DNA of 64,000 nt from Elusimicrobiota bacterium (GCA_017525905.1 JAFXSD010000007.1:3531-67530); one strand, 5' to 3'; numbered from the stretch's first letter, positions 9,406-18,702 are shown. The notes: generated by a model not told the origin, from the letters alone. Numbers and translations are program-made.

Positions 9406-11322
9406 ATGTCAAAGTTGATAGCATTTGTCGGTAATCCTAATGTCGGCAAATCCGTAATATTTAATAAACTTACAGGTCAGTATGCTGTTGTTTCAAATTA
9501 TGCAGGTACCACGGTTGATGTTACAAGAGGAAATATTACAATAGGTAACGAGCAATACCAAGTTGTTGATACTCCCGGCACATACTCTCTAATGCCGTTA
9601 TCGGAAGACGAGCAGGTTACAAGAGATTTAATAATAAAAGAAAAACCTAACATTATAGTGCAAGTTTGCGATATGAAAAATATTGAAAGGTCGTTACACT
9701 TGTTCTGTGAACTTGCATTGTTCAAAATTCCTATGGTATTGGTTTTAAATATGCGGGATGAAGCTATTCAGTCCGGAATCAGAATAAATGTAAAAAAGCT
9801 AACTGAAATTTTAGGTGTTCCGATAACCTGTTGTACGGCAACAACCGGTGACGGTGTAAGCGATATTTTAAAAATTATTCCTCAAGCAACAGTAAGTAAC
9901 TTAAACATTGAATATAAAAACAATAAAGATATTTTAACGGTGGAAAATATTTTAAAAGATAAATCTTCGATATCAAAAGTATTATCGGTATATTTGTTGT
10001 CCGGTGATAAAGATATTAAACAGTATGTCCCGCAAAAGTTGCAGGAGAAAGTTTTTAAGTTGGTATCTGATACTGTTAAAGATGAATACAAAATGTTTGC
10101 CGCACAAATATTTCATGATAACAACGAAACAATATTAAATATCGTTTCTAAAGTAAAAACAATAAAACACAGGAAACATAAAAGTATTATGGAAAAGATT
10201 GGCAACATTTGTTTGCAACCCTTTTGGGGAACGATAATAATGTTGTTCATCATTTTTATAATGTACGAATTTATCGGAGTGTTTGTTGCGGGTTTTGTTG
10301 TAGATTGGATACAAACAAAAGTGTTTGAAGAATTGATAAATCCGTTTATTGCAAATTGTTTCGATTATCTTGGAACCGGACCGGTTGTAAATTTCATAAA
10401 AGATCTGTTTGTCGGTCAGTACGGAATTTTTACAATGGCAATACCGTACGCTTTTGCAATAATATTCCCTATAGTTATTGCATTCTTTTCTTTTTTCGGG
10501 ATATTGGAAGATTCCGGTTATTTACCGAGATTATCTGTAATACTTAACAGATTGTTTTCGCTTGTAGGTTTAAACGGAAAAGCCGTTCTTCCCATGGTGT
10601 TGGGGGTGGGATGCGGAACTATGGCGGTGTTAAGTTCAAGAATACTCGAAACAAAAAAAGAAAGAATGATAGTTGTAATTTTGTTATCTCTTTCAATACC
10701 GTGTTCGGCACAATTGGGAATTATTCTTGCAATGTTGTCGTCGGTATCCTATAAAGCGACAATAGTCTGGTTATTGTGTATATTGTTTTCACTTTTCCTG
10801 GTGGGAAAGGTTTTAGATTTTTATGTTAAAGGCGAGTCTACAAACTTTATTATAGAAATTCCCAAAATGAGAATACCATCCGTAATAAACATTTTATCTA
10901 AAGTGAAAATGAGACTTGTTTGGTACATGAAAGAGGTAGTTCCTTTATTTATTTTGGCTACGGTCGGCTTGTTTTTTATGGACAAAATTCATTTGCTTAC
11001 AATACTTGAAAAATGGTTTTCTCCGATAGTGGTAAAATTTTTAGGGTTGCCTGTAGAAACAACAAGCACATTTATTATGGGCTTTTTAAGAAGAGATTAC
11101 GGAGCATCAGGAATTTATACTTTGGCACAAGACGGACTTTTGTCGGGAACACAAATTTTGGTTAGTGCGGTAGTTATAACTTTGTTTGTTCCTTGTCTTG
11201 CACAAAGTTTGATGGTAATAAAAGAGCATGGAATAAAAATTGCTTCAATAGTTTTTATAGCGATAACGACTTATGCAATTTTATTTGGAGGAACATTAAG
11301 ATTTATTATTTCATTTTTTTAA
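9406..11322 (+). CDS. feoB: Ferrous iron transporter FeoB
   Basis: The N-terminal G domain has GNPNVGKS and DTPG, followed by a polytopic membrane domain. The length is 638 aa. No separate feoA gene is adjacent. Confidence 0.95.
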   Translation: MSKLIAFVGNPNVGKSVIFNKLTGQYAVVSNYAGTTVDVTRGNITIGNEQYQVVDTPGTYSLMPLSEDEQVTRDLIIKEKPNIIVQVCDMKNIERSLHLFCELALFKIPMVLVLNMRDEAIQSGIRINVKKLTEILGVPITCCTATTGDGVSDILKIIPQATVSNLNIEYKNNKDILTVENILKDKSSISKVLSVYLLSGDKDIKQYVPQKLQEKVFKLVSDTVKDEYKMFAAQIFHDNNETILNIVSKVKTIKHRKHKSIMEKIGNICLQPFWGTIIMLFIIFIMYEFIGVFVAGFVVDWIQTKVFEELINPFIANCFDYLGTGPVVNFIKDLFVGQYGIFTMAIPYAFAIIFPIVIAFFSFFGILEDSGYLPRLSVILNRLFSLVGLNGKAVLPMVLGVGCGTMAVLSSRILETKKERMIVVILLSLSIPCSAQLGIILAMLSSVSYKATIVWLLCILFSLFLVGKVLDFYVKGESTNFIIEIPKMRIPSVINILSKVKMRLVWYMKEVVPLFILATVGLFFMDKIHLLTILEKWFSPIVVKFLGLPVETTSTFIMGFLRRDYGASGIYTLAQDGLLSGTQILVSAVVITLFVPCLAQSLMVIKEHGIKIASIVFIAITTYAILFGGTLRFIISFF

Positions 11323-11345
11323 AAAAATGAAATAATAATATAACG

Positions 11346-11462
11346 ATTTGCAATTTCTAACTACGACTTTGTATTTTTAAAATTTATGTACTCTTTCGCT
11401 CCGCTATATTTTTAGTACACCGCATTTTAAAAATACTTCGTCTCGTTTAAGAACTTGCAAAT
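11346..11462. repeat. Long imperfect palindrome (about 117 bp) at the left edge of the AT-rich island
   Basis: The arms at 11346-11383 and 11424-11462 are reverse-complementary with a few mismatches (ATTTGCAA...GTATTTTTAAAAT). An inner TGTACT/AGTACA pair flanks the core CTTTCGCTCCGC. Confidence 0.7.
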
Positions 11463-11507
11463 TTAAAGGCAACAATACAAAGAAAAGTTTAGGAGTCTGT
11501 TGTTTGT

Positions 11508-13142
11508 ATGAAAATAAAAGAAATTAGAATCAATAATTTTAAACGCTTTACGGATCTAACAATAACGGGGATTCCAGAAACTGCAAAGCTTGTAGTATTA
11601 GTTGGTCCAAATGGGTGTGGAAAAACTTCATTGTTTGAAGCATTTAATGTATGGTATCAAATTAAAGGCTTTAGTATGCTAGGTACTCACGATTATCAAT
11701 ACTATATAAAAAAATCTAATTATAATAATATTCAAGATAAGACATCAGTATTCTTTTTTGATGATATCAACAAAATAATTAAATTAATTTATTATGGATC
11801 AAGTTTAAGTAAGGGACAAATTTGTAGAAGTTTTTATTTTAGATCTGCATATAGAAATGAATCGAATTTTGTAATATCAAATTTAAGTAAACAAAAAAAT
11901 CCTATAAACGATATGGAAATAAATCGTAAAACTCTAATAACTACAGATGCTATTGTATCAGAAAATTATCATCGTTTAATTTCTTCGATTATATCAAGTT
12001 TATTTATAAAAGAAAATAATGATAGAACTGTTGAAGAATTAAGAAAAGAATTAATAGAAAAAATTCAAATTTCAATACATAATGTCTTTGAAGATTTGGA
12101 ATTATCATCATTGGGTGAACCATTGGAAAATGGTTCTTTTTATTTTACGAAGGGAAACTCAAAAAATTTTATTTATGCTAATTTATCAGCTGGAGAAAAA
12201 TCAGCTTTTGATCTAATATTAGATTTAATCATAAAATCTAGTTATTTTACAGATACAGTTTTTTGTATTGATGAACCGGAATCTCATATGCATACAATAT
12301 TACAATCAAAATTATTGAAGGAATTGTATTCTTTAATTTCTAAAAATTCCCAGCTTTGGATTTCTACTCATTCTATGGGAATGTTGAAAAAAGCAAAAGA
12401 ACTTGAAGAAGAAAATCCTGGGACTGTAGTTTTTTTGGATTTTGAAAATAGAGATTTTGATAACAAAGTTGTTATGACTCCTTCAAGAATTGATTCAACT
12501 ATGTGGAAACGATTTTTAGATTTAGCTCTTGGTGATCTATCAAAGCTTATTGCTCCAAAAATAGTTGTATTTTGTGAAGGAAATACAAATGGAAGAAAAT
12601 ATAAAGATTTTGATGCTCAAATATATACAAAAATATTTAATAGTAAATATCCGGATGTTAGTTTTGTTTCTGTTGGTTCATGCTCTGAAATTGAGAATGA
12701 AGAAAATATTAGTATGAAAATAATTTCTCAAACTTTAAGTAATTCTAAAAAAATTAAACTTGTTGATAGAGATGATATGAATGATAATGAAATAGAAGAA
12801 CTAAAAAATCAAGATATAAAAGTTCTGTCTAAAAGGCATATAGAATCTTATTTGTTAGATGATGAAATATTGAAGCTTCTATGTGAGAAAGAAAATAAAT
12901 CGGATAAATATGATGAGATTATATCTATAAAAAAAGCAAAATTAGAAGATTCTATTTCAAGAGGAAATCCAAAAGATGATATAAAATCTGCGAGTGGTGA
13001 CATTTATGTTGAGATAAAGAAAATATTACAACTATCGCATAGTGGAAATACCAAAGATGCATTTTTTAGAGACACATTAGCACCTCTAATTACGCCAGAA
13101 ACACAAGTTTATAAAGAATTAGAAAAAGATATATTTGAATAA
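11508..13142 (+). CDS. OLD-family-like protein: ABC/SMC-type ATPase fused to a Toprim/DUF4435-like C-terminal domain (GajA/PARIS-like)
   Basis: ATPase motifs are Walker A GPNGCGKTS, signature-like LSAGEKSAF, Walker B FCIDEPESHMH and H-loop ISTHS. The C-terminal part has VVFCEGNT (Toprim Glu), LVDRDD (DxD) and HIESYLL. Confidence 0.65.
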   Translation: MKIKEIRINNFKRFTDLTITGIPETAKLVVLVGPNGCGKTSLFEAFNVWYQIKGFSMLGTHDYQYYIKKSNYNNIQDKTSVFFFDDINKIIKLIYYGSSLSKGQICRSFYFRSAYRNESNFVISNLSKQKNPINDMEINRKTLITTDAIVSENYHRLISSIISSLFIKENNDRTVEELRKELIEKIQISIHNVFEDLELSSLGEPLENGSFYFTKGNSKNFIYANLSAGEKSAFDLILDLIIKSSYFTDTVFCIDEPESHMHTILQSKLLKELYSLISKNSQLWISTHSMGMLKKAKELEEENPGTVVFLDFENRDFDNKVVMTPSRIDSTMWKRFLDLALGDLSKLIAPKIVVFCEGNTNGRKYKDFDAQIYTKIFNSKYPDVSFVSVGSCSEIENEENISMKIISQTLSNSKKIKLVDRDDMNDNEIEELKNQDIKVLSKRHIESYLLDDEILKLLCEKENKSDKYDEIISIKKAKLEDSISRGNPKDDIKSASGDIYVEIKKILQLSHSGNTKDAFFRDTLAPLITPETQVYKELEKDIFE

Positions 13143-13234
13143 TATAAAAAAGGTGTTACTTAAAAAATTTGATAGCTAAAAGAAAAAATTGTTATTTGAA
13201 TTAAGATGGTGAGATAAAGGTATAAAACAAAAAT

Positions 13235-13263
13235 TTGACAAAATATACAGATGTATGTATAAT
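13235..13263 (+). promoter_or_regulatory. Consensus sigma70-type promoter (TTGACA-17 nt-TATAAT) directly upstream of the methyltransferase ATG
   Basis: TTGACA lies at 13235-13240, the spacer is 17 nt, and TATAAT lies at 13258-13263. The first in-frame ATG at 13271 is only 7 nt downstream. Confidence 0.5.
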
Positions 13264-13270
13264 AATATCT

Positions 13271-14866
13271 ATGTTAAACAATATATATTTATCAATTAAA
13301 GAAGCAAGTAACTGGGCAAGTAATTATTTAGGAAAAGAAGTAACTATTTCTAATATTTCTTATCTTATTCAATATGGAAGAATAAGAAAAATAGGGCATA
13401 ACGGTTCAACACAGATTTTAAAGTCAGATTTAGAAAGATATTATAAAAGTATAAACAAATCAAAAGAAATTGCTTGGAAAGAGAAATTAGGACAAGATTT
13501 AAATTGGAATTTATCTTTTGATAATTTAAAAGAAAAAGATACAACTAAACATGTTCATAGACTTCACCCTTACAAAGGAAAATTTATACCTCAACTAGTT
13601 GAATATTTTTTAGATGCACATACCGATAACTTTAAAAAAGAACAATATTTTTATAAGAATGATATAATTTTAGATCCATTTTGTGGTAGTGGAACTACTC
13701 TCGTTCAAGCAAATGAACTTGGTATTCATGCCATAGGAATAGATATCTCATCTTTTAATTCTTTTATTTCAAATTGTAAAATAAACGAATATTATATTGG
13801 CGAAATGGAAAAAATTATAAAAGATATTACTGACAAATTTGAAATAAAAGTAAATCAGTCAAATATTATAAACTTTGAAAATGAACTTATTGACCAATTA
13901 AATATTTTTAATAATAAATATTTTCCTGTGCCTGAATATAAATATAAATTAAGACAAAATTTAATAGATGAATATAAATATGGAAAGGAAAAAGAAAAGT
14001 TATTTTTATCCATTTATAGAAAATTAATCTCAAAATACAATGTTGATTTACTTAAAGAAAAGCCGAAAACTTTTTTGGAAAAATGGTATTTTAAAAATGT
14101 TTTAAATGAAATGAATTTTATATTTCAAGAAATTGAAAAAATAAAAAATCAAAATTCGAAAAAAATTGTAAGTTTAATTTTGAGTAGAACTATTCGTTCT
14201 TGCAGAGCAACAACACATTCTGATTTGGCAACACTTTTAGAACCTGTTAATACAACTTATTATTGTCATAAACATGGTAAAATTTGTAAGCCAATTTTTT
14301 CAATTTTAAAATGGTGGAAAACATATTCAAAAGATACAGTAAAAAGATTAAAAGAATTTTCAAACTTAAGAACTAATACTTATCAATATTGTTTAACTGG
14401 TGATAGTTCTAATATAAATATTGTTAAAGAAATTTCAAAACAAAATAAAAATTTAGGTGAAATTTTAAAAAATAGAAAAATTGACGGAATTTTCTCAAGC
14501 CCACCTTATGTCGGTCTTATTGATTACCACGAACAACATGCATATGCCTATGATTTATTCGGCTTCAAAAGAAATGATAATTTAGAAATAGGTTCTTTGT
14601 CAAAAGGACATACAAAACAAGCTCAAAAAGATTATATAAAGGGAATTTCAGCGGTTTTAAATAATTGTAAAAAATATTTAAAAAAAGATTATAATGTGTT
14701 TTTAGTTGCAAACGATAAATATAACTTATATCCGAAAATTGCAGAACTTGCCGGAATGAAAATAGTAAATCAATTTAAAAGACCAGTTTTAAATAGAACA
14801 GAAAAAGATAAAAATGCTTATGCTGAAATTATTTTTCATTTGAGGGAACAATATGATGGACAATGA
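13271..14866 (+). CDS. DNA methyltransferase (N4-cytosine or N6-adenine, alpha-class motif order) with an N-terminal HTH-like segment
   Basis: Motif I is DPFCGSGTTLVQANELG. About 270 aa later comes motif IV, FSSPPYVGLIDY. The N-terminus LSIKEASNWASNYLGKEVTISNISYLIQYGRI resembles an HTH. The listed ORF starts at the TTG at 13235, which I read as the -35 box. Confidence 0.8.
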   Translation: MLNNIYLSIKEASNWASNYLGKEVTISNISYLIQYGRIRKIGHNGSTQILKSDLERYYKSINKSKEIAWKEKLGQDLNWNLSFDNLKEKDTTKHVHRLHPYKGKFIPQLVEYFLDAHTDNFKKEQYFYKNDIILDPFCGSGTTLVQANELGIHAIGIDISSFNSFISNCKINEYYIGEMEKIIKDITDKFEIKVNQSNIINFENELIDQLNIFNNKYFPVPEYKYKLRQNLIDEYKYGKEKEKLFLSIYRKLISKYNVDLLKEKPKTFLEKWYFKNVLNEMNFIFQEIEKIKNQNSKKIVSLILSRTIRSCRATTHSDLATLLEPVNTTYYCHKHGKICKPIFSILKWWKTYSKDTVKRLKEFSNLRTNTYQYCLTGDSSNINIVKEISKQNKNLGEILKNRKIDGIFSSPPYVGLIDYHEQHAYAYDLFGFKRNDNLEIGSLSKGHTKQAQKDYIKGISAVLNNCKKYLKKDYNVFLVANDKYNLYPKIAELAGMKIVNQFKRPVLNRTEKDKNAYAEIIFHLREQYDGQ

Positions 14867-16919
14867 GAATAATATATTTAGATTAGCAGCTGTATTGTAT
14901 GCAGATAGTAACTATGATGGAATTAGCACTTTAGGTATCCGTAAAAAAATAATTGAATCTGTTTTTATAGAAAATTTAAAAAAAGAAATATCTATTCATG
15001 AAATTATTGATTTTATTGAATTAAATTATAATTTAATTTTTAGCGAACAAGACGTTAATTCTGTGTTGAAAAAATATAGTAGTGATTTTTATACTAGCAA
15101 AAAAGATAATATCTTATTTATTTCAATTCCACAAAAAAGGAAAAACAATATTCTCAATAAAATAAATAATAATATTGATTATTTTATTGATATTTTTATA
15201 AAAGACAACAAAAATAAATATATTGATATAGATATTAAGGATGTAATTTATAAATTTTTATATAATGTTTTCACTACCAATATCAATAGTTTTCAAAAAT
15301 TAATTACAAGTAAAAAAAACACAGAACTTAATAATAATTATAATTGTAAAGATAGCGAAAAAATTTTGATAAATAATTTTTTAGATTGGGATAATGATGA
15401 TAAAAATAAGGCTATATTTGATATCGCAAGTTATGCTTTAGAGTACTGCTTTTTAACAAACAAAAAAGATTCTAATGCATTAAAACTATCTAGTTTAAAT
15501 AATAAACAATTTTATATTGATACAAATATAATATATAGAGCGTTAGGTATTAATGGTGTTGATAGGCAAAAAAGATGTATAACTTTTTTACAAAAATTTA
15601 ATGAATGTAAAAATAAATTAATAATTTCAAAGCACACAGATAAAGAATTTAAAAGCACAATAGATTTTCACATAAAACGAATTCAAAACTCATTAACTAC
15701 TAAAATAAATTCAAAAGTATTTAGAAATTATAAAAAATTCAAATATAATTATGTAAAAAATGATATTTTTACATTTTATCATGAATGGAGAATTAACAAA
15801 AACAATACAAATTTAAATATATTTCACATTCATTTACTTTCTTTATATGATAACCTAAAAAAACAGTTTAATATATCAATAGATAATGATATTTTGAATG
15901 ATAAACAATTATATATCAAACAAAATATATTAAATAATTATGTAGAAGAGATTTCAAATATAAAATCTACTGAAAGAGATGATTATGGTGATGTTAAACC
16001 TGATGCTCAAAATATTTTATTAATAGAAGAAAAAAGAAAAAGTAATAAAGATAATATTTTTAACACTATATATTTTTTAATTTCTGCTGATAAACTTTTA
16101 CAAAAATGGGACTCAAATAGAGCTTATAAAAATGATGTTACTCCTATTGTATTATTGCCAAGTCAATGGTTAAGTATTATTTTAAGATATATAAATCGTA
16201 GCAAAGATGATTTTAAAAGCTTTGTCGCTTTTTTAAATTTAAAGATGAATGATAATGTGATAACAGGAGAACAATTTCAGGCAATTTTAGCTGGTGTCAG
16301 TGAAGTAACTACTAATATAGAACAACAGACTACTTTTGTAAAAAATTTTATAGATAATGATTTCAAAAAACAAAGAATTGAACCTGAAAATATTAAAGAA
16401 ACTGCCAAGTTGTATGCAAAAAAAGAACTTGAAAAAGAGAACGAAATATTAAAATCAAATTACGAAGAAGTAATGAAAGAAAATAAAAAACTAAAATTAA
16501 ATGAAAATAAAAATATTGAGATAAATCAAAAACAAAAAACTATAAATATGAAATTAATAAAAGATAATGTGAGTAAAGATCTGTTAAATTGGAAGATTAG
16601 AGGTGTTGTTTTCTCAATACTGGTTATTCTTTTTTGTGTTACGTCAATAGTATTGTTATTTTATTTTCGAGATTGGAAATATAATTATATTTATAGTTTT
16701 AGTGATTACTTAAATAAATTATGTAGAAACAGTGTAATTATTGATAAATTAATAGATATGATATTAACAGCTTTGTTTGCTGTACCAATGTTGTCTTTAA
16801 AAAATTTATTTTGGTGTCGTTTATTTAATAAAAAATTTATTAAGCAAAAGATGCAAGAATTAGAACAAAATTATAATGATAAATATAATATAGTTAATAA
16901 AAAATCAAAATTAATATAA
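14853..16919 (+). CDS. Uncharacterised 688-aa protein: N-terminal wHTH-like region, PIN-like core, coiled coil, and two C-terminal transmembrane helices
   Basis: It overlaps the methyltransferase gene by 14 nt. PIN-like elements are FYIDTNIIYRALG and a later YFLISADKLL. The coiled coil is ELEKENEILKSNYEEVMKENKKLK. The TM helices are GVVFSILVILFCVTSIVLLFYF and ILTALFAVPMLSL. Confidence 0.6.
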   Translation: MMDNENNIFRLAAVLYADSNYDGISTLGIRKKIIESVFIENLKKEISIHEIIDFIELNYNLIFSEQDVNSVLKKYSSDFYTSKKDNILFISIPQKRKNNILNKINNNIDYFIDIFIKDNKNKYIDIDIKDVIYKFLYNVFTTNINSFQKLITSKKNTELNNNYNCKDSEKILINNFLDWDNDDKNKAIFDIASYALEYCFLTNKKDSNALKLSSLNNKQFYIDTNIIYRALGINGVDRQKRCITFLQKFNECKNKLIISKHTDKEFKSTIDFHIKRIQNSLTTKINSKVFRNYKKFKYNYVKNDIFTFYHEWRINKNNTNLNIFHIHLLSLYDNLKKQFNISIDNDILNDKQLYIKQNILNNYVEEISNIKSTERDDYGDVKPDAQNILLIEEKRKSNKDNIFNTIYFLISADKLLQKWDSNRAYKNDVTPIVLLPSQWLSIILRYINRSKDDFKSFVAFLNLKMNDNVITGEQFQAILAGVSEVTTNIEQQTTFVKNFIDNDFKKQRIEPENIKETAKLYAKKELEKENEILKSNYEEVMKENKKLKLNENKNIEINQKQKTINMKLIKDNVSKDLLNWKIRGVVFSILVILFCVTSIVLLFYFRDWKYNYIYSFSDYLNKLCRNSVIIDKLIDMILTALFAVPMLSLKNLFWCRLFNKKFIKQKMQELEQNYNDKYNIVNKKSKLI

Positions 16920-16931
16920 TTTGAGGTTTTT

Positions 16932-17966
16932 ATGAATAAAGAACAAAAACAAGCCATTGCATTTGTGGTTATTGAAATACTTAAGTCTAGATTTGATTCT
17001 TTTCCAAATACAGCAACAATTTCAAGAAATGCTCCTTTTCATAAAGCTTTTTTGCAAGCTTTTTCTAAAAACTTTGAAGCTTTAAATTTAAATATGGATG
17101 CATCTATAACTATAAGTTCATGGATTCACGGATTGAATACAACATTAGGTCAATCTTTTTTTGAAAAGACAGCACAAATTGTTTCTGGTGGACAAAAAAG
17201 AGCATTTAAAGATCGAAAAATATATTCTAATCAAGTAAACACAATATCAAATATCATGATTGATCTTAAAAATGGTACACAAAAACCAAATGTAGCAAGA
17301 GAAGAAAGCTTACTTATGAATAATTCGAATGGAAATTTAACAGTTGCTCAAAATTTTGTAGCAGATTGTATTTTTGAAGAAAAAGATAGAATTGTTGTTA
17401 TAGAGTTAAAATCTGTTCGTCCGAATTCAGGTCAAATACACGATGAAAAACAAAAAATTCTTTCAGCAAAAGCAGTATTAAAACAATTATATCCAAATAA
17501 AATAATTTCTTATTATTTTGGTTTTCCATTTGATCCTTTGTCTGATACAGAAACAGGTTGTGACAAACAGAGATTTATGAATAGTGTTATTGAATTTTCT
17601 AAGTTTTGTGATGCAAAAGAAATTTTAATATCAAGTGAATTATGGGATTTTCTATCTGGACAAGAACATACTATGGAGGATATATTAAAAATTATTAGAG
17701 ATATTTCTACTGTTGATTTTAATGATAAATTTGATTTTATTTCATCCCATAATTATTTAAATAATGTCGAGAGATATAGAGACGTTGTATTAAGTTGGAA
17801 TATTTATAACGAAATTGAAATAATTAATAACTTTGAAAACTTGTTAACATTAAGTAATACAAACAAAACAGTTGATAGAAATATTCATTCAAGTCCATTT
17901 AATCAAGATGGAACTTATAATATACGAAGATATAATAATTTAAAAAAATTTATTACTATAAATTAA
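16932..17966 (+). CDS. Type II restriction endonuclease, PD-(D/E)XK fold, tentatively TdeIII-like
   Basis: It has a D...ExK signature (ADCIFEEKDRIVVIELKS). The N-terminal PFHKAFL...HGLNTTLGQSFFE resembles what I recall of the TdeIII family. It lies in the same operon as a methyltransferase. Confidence 0.55.
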   Translation: MNKEQKQAIAFVVIEILKSRFDSFPNTATISRNAPFHKAFLQAFSKNFEALNLNMDASITISSWIHGLNTTLGQSFFEKTAQIVSGGQKRAFKDRKIYSNQVNTISNIMIDLKNGTQKPNVAREESLLMNNSNGNLTVAQNFVADCIFEEKDRIVVIELKSVRPNSGQIHDEKQKILSAKAVLKQLYPNKIISYYFGFPFDPLSDTETGCDKQRFMNSVIEFSKFCDAKEILISSELWDFLSGQEHTMEDILKIIRDISTVDFNDKFDFISSHNYLNNVERYRDVVLSWNIYNEIEIINNFENLLTLSNTNKTVDRNIHSSPFNQDGTYNIRRYNNLKKFITIN

Positions 17967-18060
17967 AAATTTTAAAATAATTATAGTTAAATTTACAAGT
18001 TTATATTCTGTTTTACAATTTGTTAAATTTTTACAATATTTTCAAAGAATTTTAAAAAAA

Positions 18061-18702
18061 ATGAAAACGAAATTGATAGAAAATAACAGTAATGATTTGG
18101 TTGTGTTTTTAACAGGTTGGGGATGCGACGATAACCAGTTTAAAAATTTTTCTTCAAGCAAAAATTTGCTGTTGTGTTGGGACTATTGTACATTGGATTT
18201 TGAGTTTGATTTCAGTAAATATAATAAAGTAAGTTTATTAACTTATTCTGCGGGCGTTTTGACAGCATGTTTGTTGCAAGATAAATTTCCTGAATTCGAT
18301 AAAAAAGTTGCAGTAAACGGTAATCCGTTAATGACAGATAAGAAGTTTGGAATAAGCAAAAAAATTATAGATTTAATGTTGAACTTAAATTTAGATAACT
18401 GCATGGACTTTATATCAACCTATCTTGTCCACGATGAACAAGAAATGAAGAAATTCCTTTCTACACCTTCTTACAGACCGTTTGAAAGTTCAAAACAAGA
18501 GTTGATAAAATTGCAGGAGTATTGTAATTTAAAGTTTAAACCTGTGGACTTTGATAAAGTGATTTTGTCCGATAACGATAAAGTATTTAATCCGGCTACG
18601 CAACAGGAATATTTTAAAGGTAATTTTGTGTTGCTGAAAAATGCGTCACATCATACACCGTTTTTGCGATTTAGTTCCGTTGATGAAATTTTTAATTTGT
18701 AG
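18061..18702 (+). CDS. bioG: DUF452/BioG-like esterase (pimeloyl-ACP methyl ester esterase family)
   Basis: It is collinear with my recollection of Haemophilus BioG: MKTK..., LVVFLTGWG, LLLCWDY, FEFDFS, the nucleophile elbow YSAGV, AVNG, and DKVFNPATQ. Confidence 0.6.
   Translation: MKTKLIENNSNDLVVFLTGWGCDDNQFKNFSSSKNLLLCWDYCTLDFEFDFSKYNKVSLLTYSAGVLTACLLQDKFPEFDKKVAVNGNPLMTDKKFGISKKIIDLMLNLNLDNCMDFISTYLVHDEQEMKKFLSTPSYRPFESSKQELIKLQEYCNLKFKPVDFDKVILSDNDKVFNPATQQEYFKGNFVLLKNASHHTPFLRFSSVDEIFNL

Follow-up and report, generated by a model that had tools for sequence, protein, structure and literature searches.

A predicted membrane-anchored, PIN-like protein encoded as candidate defence cargo between the two genes of a type II restriction–modification operon

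Locus and operon structure

We analysed a 64,000-nucleotide (nt) stretch of Elusimicrobiota bacterium DNA (GCA_017525905.1 JAFXSD010000007.1:3531-67530; hereafter the window, in whose numbering all coordinates are given), in which a type II restriction–modification (R-M) operon carries an additional gene between its DNA methyltransferase (MTase, M) and its TdeIII-family restriction endonuclease (REase, R). This gene, an open reading frame (ORF) of 688 amino acids (aa) on the plus strand (14853..16919, ATG start), is the target of this study and the cargo gene X of an M-X-R arrangement (Table 1). An earlier interpretation of the same DNA (the sequence-only reading) had placed its start within the last codons of the MTase gene and its end 12 nt before the REase gene, and both junctions proved correct: the target ATG precedes the MTase stop codon (14864-14866), giving a 14-nt overlap (caatATGATGGACAATGA), and the target TAA finishes at 16919, 12 nt short of the REase ATG at 16932. 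The GAGGG Shine-Dalgarno sequence inside the MTase 3′ end provides a basis for translational coupling from the MTase to the target gene, which, as read from the nucleotide sequence, is coupled translationally to both of its neighbours. A 2-kb ORF in DNA of ~20% guanine–cytosine (GC) content, with 373 homologues, is not a product of chance.

The target gene is probably transcribed with the MTase and REase genes from a single consensus promoter just 5′ of the MTase gene, and no terminator-like site was found between that promoter (13235) and 17966, leaving the three genes unseparated. The MTase most likely begins at the ATG at 13271, as the gene callers chose; a TTG at 13235, offered by mechanical ORF listing, was rejected as part of the −35 hexamer of this promoter. 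Only 7 nt lie between the end of the −10 hexamer and the MTase ATG, with no Shine-Dalgarno sequence between them, so the MTase, and with it the whole M-X-R messenger RNA, may be leaderless. A Mycoplasma-type genetic code was considered and dropped, the ORFs being intact under table 11.

The ATPase, MTase, target and REase genes together form a four-gene compositional island (18-26% GC, versus 31-38% in the flanks) between feoB and bioG, of foreign origin by its composition. The same organism, an Elusimicrobia metagenome-assembled genome, shows this island on six or more metagenome contigs. The ABC-type, OLD/AriAB/Gabija-like ATPase lies within this island just 5′ of the R-M operon and outside the M-X-R unit, and is probably a separate single-gene defence system. 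Searches for boundary repeats or target-site duplications around 11250-18150 returned AT-rich chance matches alone. At the left edge of the island, a perfect 18+18 nt palindrome consisting only of A and T (TTATTATTTCATTTTTTT/AAAAAAATGAAATAATAA; 11303-11338) runs across the feoB stop codon.

The methyltransferase–endonuclease junction as a cargo site

A metagenome scan with the MTase recovered 80 loci, 58 of which had a same-strand TdeIII-family REase downstream and constitute our junction sample. M and R were adjacent and free of cargo in 34 of the 58, and overlapped directly in two distant relatives (L067 and L068; REase 52-53% and MTase 60-61% identical). Inserts of 1.1-1.9 kb occupied 15 junctions and encoded AIPR/AbiU (8 loci), an unnamed family of 379-454 aa (4), a GmrSD_N+HNH protein (1) and an AAA_21/AAA_15 ABC ATPase (1), the last insert being ORF-less on the plus strand; the other nine junctions held 146-390 nt with small ORFs. 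In one locus (L066), a 623-aa AbiU/AIPR (Pfam AIPR 1.7e-37; PADLOC AbiU 6.5e-55) stands between an MTase 92% and an REase 72% identical to those of the window, overlapping M by 25 nt and ending 17 nt before R. The M-X-R order itself recurs elsewhere: an orthologue 92% identical to the target lies between the MTase (~90%) and a TdeIII REase of 66-69% identity. Given empty, short-insert and large-insert junctions, the M-R junction of this type II family is a recurrent cargo site, whose annotatable large cargoes are defence genes, and the window protein is one such cargo. Guilt by embedding, published for Hma, BREX, DISARM and type I R-M with a high validation rate of embedded genes (10.1101/2024.01.29.577857), looks for the two features seen here: same-strand nesting between known defence genes, with the tight junctions described above, and a slot that is empty in relatives and accepts other defence genes.

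Several observations accompany this sample. Across L053, L054 and L066, compared with window positions 13271-17966, the MTase is 89-92% and the cargo 92% conserved and the REase just 66-72%, indicating that the REase is either faster-evolving or exchanged between close lineages. The unnamed 379-454 aa family (L102:2308-3444, L103:3321-4472, L142:2786-4147 and L149:7569-8909) has no Pfam match and, by the same embedding logic, would be another defence candidate. The 1.7-kb insert without a plus-strand ORF of at least 50 aa (L098:7575-9249) could be a minus-strand gene, a non-coding element or decayed cargo. ORFs in the nine short inserts (L072, L074, L090, L106, L110, L115, L117, L128 and L143) span 61-126 aa. 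Apart from a GNAT acetyltransferase fragment or mini-protein, they lack Pfam matches, and these inserts could represent small regulators, what is left of earlier cargo, or misjudged REase starts.

Family distribution and genomic company

The 373 homologues (E<=1e-3, 90% clustering) share 37-48% identity with the target over >90% of its length. A profile of the core region alone recovered 669 clusters at 50% identity (E<=1e-3), nearly all of 650-720 aa and constant in core position, mostly from Bacteroidota including gut Bacteroides, with Elusimicrobia, Clostridia and others. Searched against 1.84 billion representatives, this profile found only family members among its best 150 matches and no bridge to a named family. 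The window protein is 44-48% identical to Bacteroidota proteins, and was therefore probably drawn from a pool living mainly in that phylum. A scan of species genomes that required one of two exact peptide patterns, and whose counts are thus a lower bound, located at least 46 loci among 185,579 genomes, patchily distributed across phyla. In a plasmid collection, the REase had no match and the target a single homologue, on a Clostridium estertheticum plasmid, 34% identical and retaining every element including the C-terminal hairpin described below; the target had no match in a phage collection. In Capnocytophaga gingivalis (L046:9977-12038), the homologue between hsdR and hsdM is broken, as if by a frameshift, into two overlapping ORFs (174 and 518 aa), and a simple caller found no intact ORF at L034, L038, L039, L047 and L049; some copies of the family may be pseudogenes.

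None of 52 homologue loci carried the window MTase, REase or ATPase within 10 kb by tblastn, and the idea of the target protein as a component of this particular R-M system was accordingly rejected. Its relatives keep other R-M company. Type I specificity subunits are the immediate upstream neighbours in 9 of 40 cases, and type I operons embed or abut the gene in 13 of 46 species-representative loci, with two further loci nearby. Two layouts recur. In hsdR(EcoEI-like)-hsdM-hsdS-target, the gaps run from −4 to +11 nt; the other layout is hsdM-hsdS-[other cargo]-target-[other cargo]-hsdR(HindI-like). An R-M neighbour is lacking for about 70% of homologues. A neighbour-joining tree interleaves embedded and solitary members throughout, showing that R-M linkage has been gained or lost many times. 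The family is autonomous, yet strongly drawn to R-M systems in general.

Genes embedded alongside family members match PADLOC PDC-S02, S13, S25 (SIR2) and S26, as well as a PifA/QatA-like KAP NTPase. In the multi-cargo type I operons of Bacteroidota (L010:2632-3750; L031:6724-9897 and 12062-13573; L030:8743-9894; L040:12551-13399), this co-cargo comprises YhcG/PDC-S02, KAP NTPase, SIR2/PDC-S25, PDDEXK_4/PDC-S26 and Bro-N/PDC-S13. Solitary copies lie in variable defence or mobile islands: one with a type 2 defence-associated reverse transcriptase (DRT2), another with putAbiC, an OLD-like ATPase and a KAP NTPase, and a third bounded by an integrase and containing a HEPN gene. Others are stable on chromosomes over many samples (e.g. 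P0024 in 55 blocks). The suggestion of the sequence-only reading that this is a defence or abortive-infection gene is, as a general idea, supported by these data: AbiU/AIPR fills the same slot beside a 92%-identical MTase, and homologues occur within defence islands and operons of type I R-M.

Protein architecture

The window protein returned nothing significant from Pfam (E<=10), NCBIfam, PHROGs, PADLOC v2.0.0 or PDB sequences (phmmer and a 94-sequence family profile); that profile retrieved only coiled coils from PDB (PAR-4, tetherin and ATP synthase b; E 0.3-9), which we took as noise, and a cytochrome c550 match in sequence-model searches was discarded as spurious. Its architecture was therefore read from an AlphaFold2 full-length model built on an alignment of 94 family sequences (predicted local distance difference test, pLDDT, 82.4; predicted template-modelling score, pTM, 0.69), residues being called invariant where identical across all 94. 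The protein opens with an invariant motif (IFRLAAVLYADSNY) that forms a helix in the model (FRLAAVLYADNNY). The sequence-only reading had described the first ~200 aa as resembling a winged helix-turn-helix; a winged helix is indeed predicted, confined to residues ~26-91, and residues 108-215 form a separate helical region. Foldseek matches of the winged helix include HlyU, SarA, BlaI, PadR, F93 and Sso10a (probability 0.96-1.0, TM(target) 0.45-0.7, E 0.3-1). Beyond the PIN-like core, a highly conserved helical extension carries the invariant residues P436, Q438, W439, R445, Y446, D452, D453, F457, F460, L461 and N462.

The ~60-aa coiled coil of the sequence-only reading corresponds to a long stalk helix, somewhat longer than had been supposed: the model helix is unbroken from 511 to 603, which gives a cytoplasmic stalk of ~73 residues. 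Its sequence is variable, with indels across the family, and it probably serves as a coiled-coil spacer through which the protein dimerises. The two hydrophobic helices noted at the extreme C-terminus are seen in hydropathy profiles, the first as a strong and the second as a weaker peak. Transmembrane helix 1 (TM1; GVVFSILVILFCVTSIVLLFYF, residues 584-605) has a Kyte-Doolittle 19-residue mean of 3.07 (585-603), a peak found in 94/94 members, and the second peak (TM2; 628-646, containing ILTALFAVPMLSL) reaches 1.83 and is at least 1.5 in 62/94. A K/R-rich tail follows TM2, as expected for a two-helix membrane hairpin of ~20-residue hydrophobic helices with positive-inside flanks; C-terminal of 603 the model places helices at 612-623, 631-657 and 660-687. 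The simplest topology compatible with the model would be a C-terminal hairpin with both protein ends cytoplasmic and the 580-residue N-terminal part held on the ~73-residue stalk.

Table 1. Features of the operon, its upstream neighbour and the target protein (window coordinates)
Feature	Position	Strand	Basis
ABC-type ATPase, OLD/AriAB/Gabija-like, 544 aa	11508..13142	+	Pfam AAA_21 4.5e-20, AAA_15 2.2e-16; PADLOC AriAB 3.7e-31, Old 4e-14, GajA, PtuA
Candidate sigma-70 operon promoter, TTGACA-17-TATAAT	13235..13263	+	Sole 12/12 consensus match in 11200-18200
Type II DNA methyltransferase, N6/N4 class, 531 aa	13271..14866	+	Pfam N6_N4_Mtase 7e-15; PADLOC MTase_II PDLC03249 4e-231, full length
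Shine-Dalgarno GAGGG	14842-14846	+	6 nt 5′ of target ATG, within MTase 3′ end; read from sequence
N-terminal invariant motif, residues 8-21	14874..14915	+	F9 R10 L11 V14 L15 Y16 Y21 invariant in 94
Predicted winged helix-turn-helix, residues ~26-91, three helices + beta hairpin	14928..15125	+	Model secondary structure
Predicted helical region, residues 108-215, invariant stretch W179..N203	15174..15497	+	Model, alignment
Predicted alpha/beta core, PIN-like, residues 216-435; strands 2 and 3 each followed by a long helical insert	15498..16157	+	Model, alignment
Candidate catalytic codon D223	15519-15521	+	Model, alignment
Candidate catalytic codon E265	15645-15647	+	Model, alignment
Candidate catalytic codon D384	16002-16004	+	Model, alignment
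Candidate catalytic codon D413	16089-16091	+	Model, alignment
Helical extension, highly conserved, residues 436-505 (LLPSQW..ILRY..DDFKSFV.FLNL)	16158..16367	+	Alignment
Predicted cytoplasmic stalk helix, residues 511-583	16383..16601	+	Single helix 511-603 in model; coiled-coil matches of the family profile in PDB
Predicted membrane hairpin: TM1 584-605, outside loop 606-627 (W.YNY motif), TM2 ~628-650	16602..16802	+	Hydropathy
Lysine-rich C-terminal helix, residues 651-688, predicted cytoplasmic	16803..16916	+	Positive-inside rule
Shine-Dalgarno GAGG	16923-16926	+	5 nt 5′ of REase ATG; read from sequence
Type II restriction endonuclease, TdeIII family, 344 aa	16932..17966	+	Pfam RE_TdeIII 3.4e-53; PADLOC REase_II 4e-81

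A PIN-like core

PIN proteins have a three-layer alpha/beta/alpha fold built on a parallel sheet (S1-S5). A separate model of the target core alone (pLDDT 81, pTM 0.80) contains five strands, S1 to S5, at residues 219-222, 255-259, 342-344, 407-410 and 433-434. Two short motifs had earlier been likened to a PIN-type strand 1 with its catalytic Asp (FYIDTNIIYRALG, residues 220-232) and a PIN-like distal Asp (YFLISADKLL, residues 407-416), and the model is consistent with both: D223 falls directly after S1 and D413 two residues past S4. E265 lies in the helix following S2 and D384 starts a helix (382-395) preceding S4; all four acidic residues are invariant, as is S411. In the PIN superfamily, the acids are found after S1, at the N-terminus of the crossover helix H4, after S4 and, usually for the fourth, after S2 (Matelska 2017, PMC5499597), positions that the target acids match along the strand order, the match being one of order rather than of three-dimensional distance.

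Foldseek comparison of the core-only model with PDB gave PIN-like structures for ~30 of the top 32 matches (TM(target) 0.5-0.65, probability to 0.98, E 0.04-1), led by HARP, PRORP, VapC2, VapC15, PAE2754, PAE0151 and AF1683, and the best match in BFVD was a viral ‘PIN like domain’ (E 4.4e-3). Matches to the full-length model were a mixture of winged-helix and PIN structures; restricting the query to the core sharpened the list and left the E-values no better. VapC-type RNases fit the core better than FEN/Exo1-type DNA nucleases, with FEN1/Exo1 at probabilities of 0.04-0.2, behind VapC and HARP. Alignment of the family profile by hhalign with Shigella VapC (sequence checked as identical to 3tnd_A) paired D223 with D7, the catalytic residue, and E265 with E42 (P=0.0033, probability 9.8%). 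The structure prediction and Foldseek search suggested by the sequence-only reading thus yielded an acidic quartet and PIN-dominated matches, at E-values of 0.004 or more and with no curated hidden Markov model (HMM) match. With statistics weak everywhere, we term the core PIN-like by predicted fold and active-site pattern and not a proven member of any PIN family; from this we infer that it may act as a metal-dependent nuclease.

Proposed function and alternatives

We lean, with some reserve, towards the explanation that the target is an autonomous, single-protein defence effector: a silent VapC-like nuclease that on infection would cut RNA and arrest the cell, and that was captured as cargo between M and R. 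The protein would insert in the inner membrane through its C-terminal hairpin, both ends remaining cytoplasmic, and pair through its ~73-residue stalk, so that the PIN-like, putatively metal-dependent nuclease (D223, E265, D384 and D413) and the winged-helix/helical module were held ~10 nm below the membrane. The nuclease would be inactive, or kept from host nucleic acids, until either the membrane hairpin or the N-terminal module sensed an infection cue; once activated, it would cleave RNA, as VapC-like PINs usually do, and infection would be stopped by cell arrest. The R-M operon would serve as a vehicle offering shared expression, shared horizontal transfer and layered defence, and not as a required partner.

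Several points weigh against this explanation. Similarity of the core to PIN proteins is sub-threshold throughout, with no Foldseek E-value below 0.004 and an hhalign probability below 10%; no curated PIN-family HMM matches, the window protein lacking any Pfam match even at E<=10; of 25 members, two reach E=0.029 with Pfam PIN (PF01850), short of its cut-off; and three-dimensional clustering of the four acids forms no part of the positional match. TM2 is only moderately hydrophobic, and some homologues adjoin core genes, e.g. mutS and rpsH in L003. Function throughout the family is read from sequence and model; the substrate (RNA or DNA), trigger and outcome (abortive or direct) are all inferred, and embedding proves linkage, not function.

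Precedents exist for parts of the proposed arrangement. DS-3 (DefensePredictor; 10.1101/2025.01.08.631726) is described as a single validated PIN protein that defends without an antitoxin and whose PIN core is split by a large insert; its description, which was our sole basis for comparison with the target, mentions no membrane anchor. The core resembles VapC-like PINs and DUF4935/PIN_12 in predicted strand order, four acidic positions and monocistronic genes with no antitoxin, and the DUF4935 group further shares the helical inserts after S2 and S3 (PMC5499597). In contrast to VapC, the target is five times longer, adds a winged helix, stalk and hairpin, and has no Pfam PIN match at curated thresholds. 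PIN genes coupled to type I R-M have been reported previously, with none in type II contexts (Matelska 2017, PMC5499597). AbiU/AIPR (PF10592) shares the M-[X]-R slot (L066 and eight metagenome loci), a similar size (560-640 aa) and overlapping junctions, but has no sequence similarity to the target, AIPR being soluble and lacking the PIN core, stalk and hairpin. The HEC/PDC embedded candidates (Payne et al. 2024) are likewise nested in multi-gene defence operons, and HEC-09 (HTH + NYN/PIN-like) and HEC-03 (ABC ATPase + PIN) have PIN-like effectors, HEC-09 also possessing an N-terminal helix-turn-helix; however, the target has no PADLOC v2.0.0 match, its host is a two-gene type II R-M system, a class outside the Payne survey, and its membrane anchor is new.

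The same architecture can be read as direct defence at the membrane, as in SNIPE (PD-lambda-1), which cuts phage DNA during injection and is toxic when untethered (PMC13190303): the anchor would place winged helix and nuclease at the point of genome entry to cut incoming phage or conjugative DNA, the tether sparing the chromosome. Both proteins combine an inner-membrane anchor, a nucleic-acid- or DNA-binding module and a nuclease in one polypeptide, the N-terminal fold of the target resembles DNA-binding winged helices, the PIN superfamily includes DNA 5′-nucleases (PMC5499597), and the R-M systems with which the family co-occurs likewise act on entering DNA. Yet the fold matches best to RNases (VapC, HARP and PRORP), the stalk would keep the nuclease ~10 nm off the membrane, and the domain order is inverted, SNIPE having an N-terminal anchor, DUF4041 and GIY-YIG where the target has a C-terminal anchor, winged helix and PIN-like core; the two are not homologous, and no match was found in Pfam or in PADLOC, which contains PD-lambda-1. 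We regard this as an unlikely account, and a PrrC-like guard as somewhat less likely still. In the latter, a fail-safe raised by the sequence-only reading, the nuclease would be kept latent by its R-M enzyme and freed when a phage anti-restriction factor blocked that enzyme, following the example of PrrC, which EcoprrI silences and T4 Stp activates (PMC1484252, PMC2610378). PrrC and RloC, anticodon nucleases encoded by ‘restriction-linked ORFs’, are nuclease genes nested in R-M operons; several type I loci of the target family copy the prrC position after hsdS (hsdM-hsdS-prrC-hsdR), to which the M-X-R order of the window is comparable, tight translational coupling would favour co-assembly, and RloC shows the same partial R-M linkage as the target family. 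However, PrrC is described as almost always R-M-linked (PMC3458546), whereas just 13-15 of 46 species loci of the target family are linked to type I R-M and most homologues have no R-M neighbour at all. The partners are unrelated (EcoEI-like and HindI-like type I, TdeIII type II), linkage has come and gone repeatedly, and the same slot takes unrelated cargo. Silencing by R-M is not indicated; the target is moreover membrane-anchored (by prediction) and PIN-like, without the ABC ATPase or HEPN-type anticodon nuclease of PrrC/RloC (Pfam, NCBIfam and PADLOC). With the window MTase and REase absent from all 52 loci, partners of unrelated types and an interleaved tree, a fail-safe or regulatory role tied to this R-M system is not supported.

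Less probable again is a selfish stabiliser, i.e. a single-chain toxin/antitoxin-like PIN that penalises loss of the operon, its winged helix acting as a built-in neutralising or autoregulatory module. The classic VapC toxins are PIN domains, the family has no separate antitoxin gene, and PIN genes lacking antitoxins are known in type I R-M operons (Matelska 2017, PMC5499597), but addiction has no need of a conserved 700-aa architecture with stalk and hairpin, R-M systems are already addiction modules themselves, and the solitary chromosomal copies are stable. A regulator of R-M activity was also suggested earlier; as a winged-helix controller timing the REase, or a 2-kb spacer delaying R relative to M, it would draw on the N-terminal winged helix and on the coupling of REase translation to the end of the target ORF. 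Controller proteins, though, are small and soluble, most of the family lives without any R-M, canonical R-M relatives function with M and R directly overlapping, and the invariant residues are the nuclease acids rather than the helix-turn-helix; a controller-protein role was dropped, and regulation as a whole is highly improbable. We give least credence of all to a housekeeping membrane RNase or another non-defence function. RNase Y is a membrane anchor, coiled coil and nuclease in one, and some family copies sit near core genes; the patchy cross-phylum spread, the low-GC island, the varied neighbourhoods and the plasmid copy speak against it.

A more novel joint proposition, which we think rather unlikely as a whole, is that the M-R junction is a hot-swappable site for abortive-infection and other defence cargo and that this cargo founds a new class of membrane-tethered PIN nucleases, which would sense infection at the membrane or cut entering nucleic acid there, telling self from non-self by location in the manner of SNIPE, though with parts unrelated to it.

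Conclusions

Nuclease genes nested in R-M operons are already known (PrrC, AIPR and type I-coupled PINs); what is new here is a family without a model in any library searched, its architecture, and a two-gene type II operon with a polymorphic cargo slot. If the family is a defence system, a widespread effector (669 clusters) has gone unrecognised by current annotation resources, with the unusual predicted architecture of a PIN-like nuclease on a stalk anchored by a C-terminal membrane hairpin. The locus carries guilt by embedding beyond large multi-gene systems, into a type II R-M operon of two genes. An extra gene separates M from R in about a quarter of the examined relatives, which gives a simple rule for finding more defence genes, such as the 379-454 aa family. 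With one promoter and three coupled genes, the operon in the window is also a compact natural test construct. If the hot-swappable reading of the junction is true, even the simplest R-M operons would carry a mobile defence repertoire.

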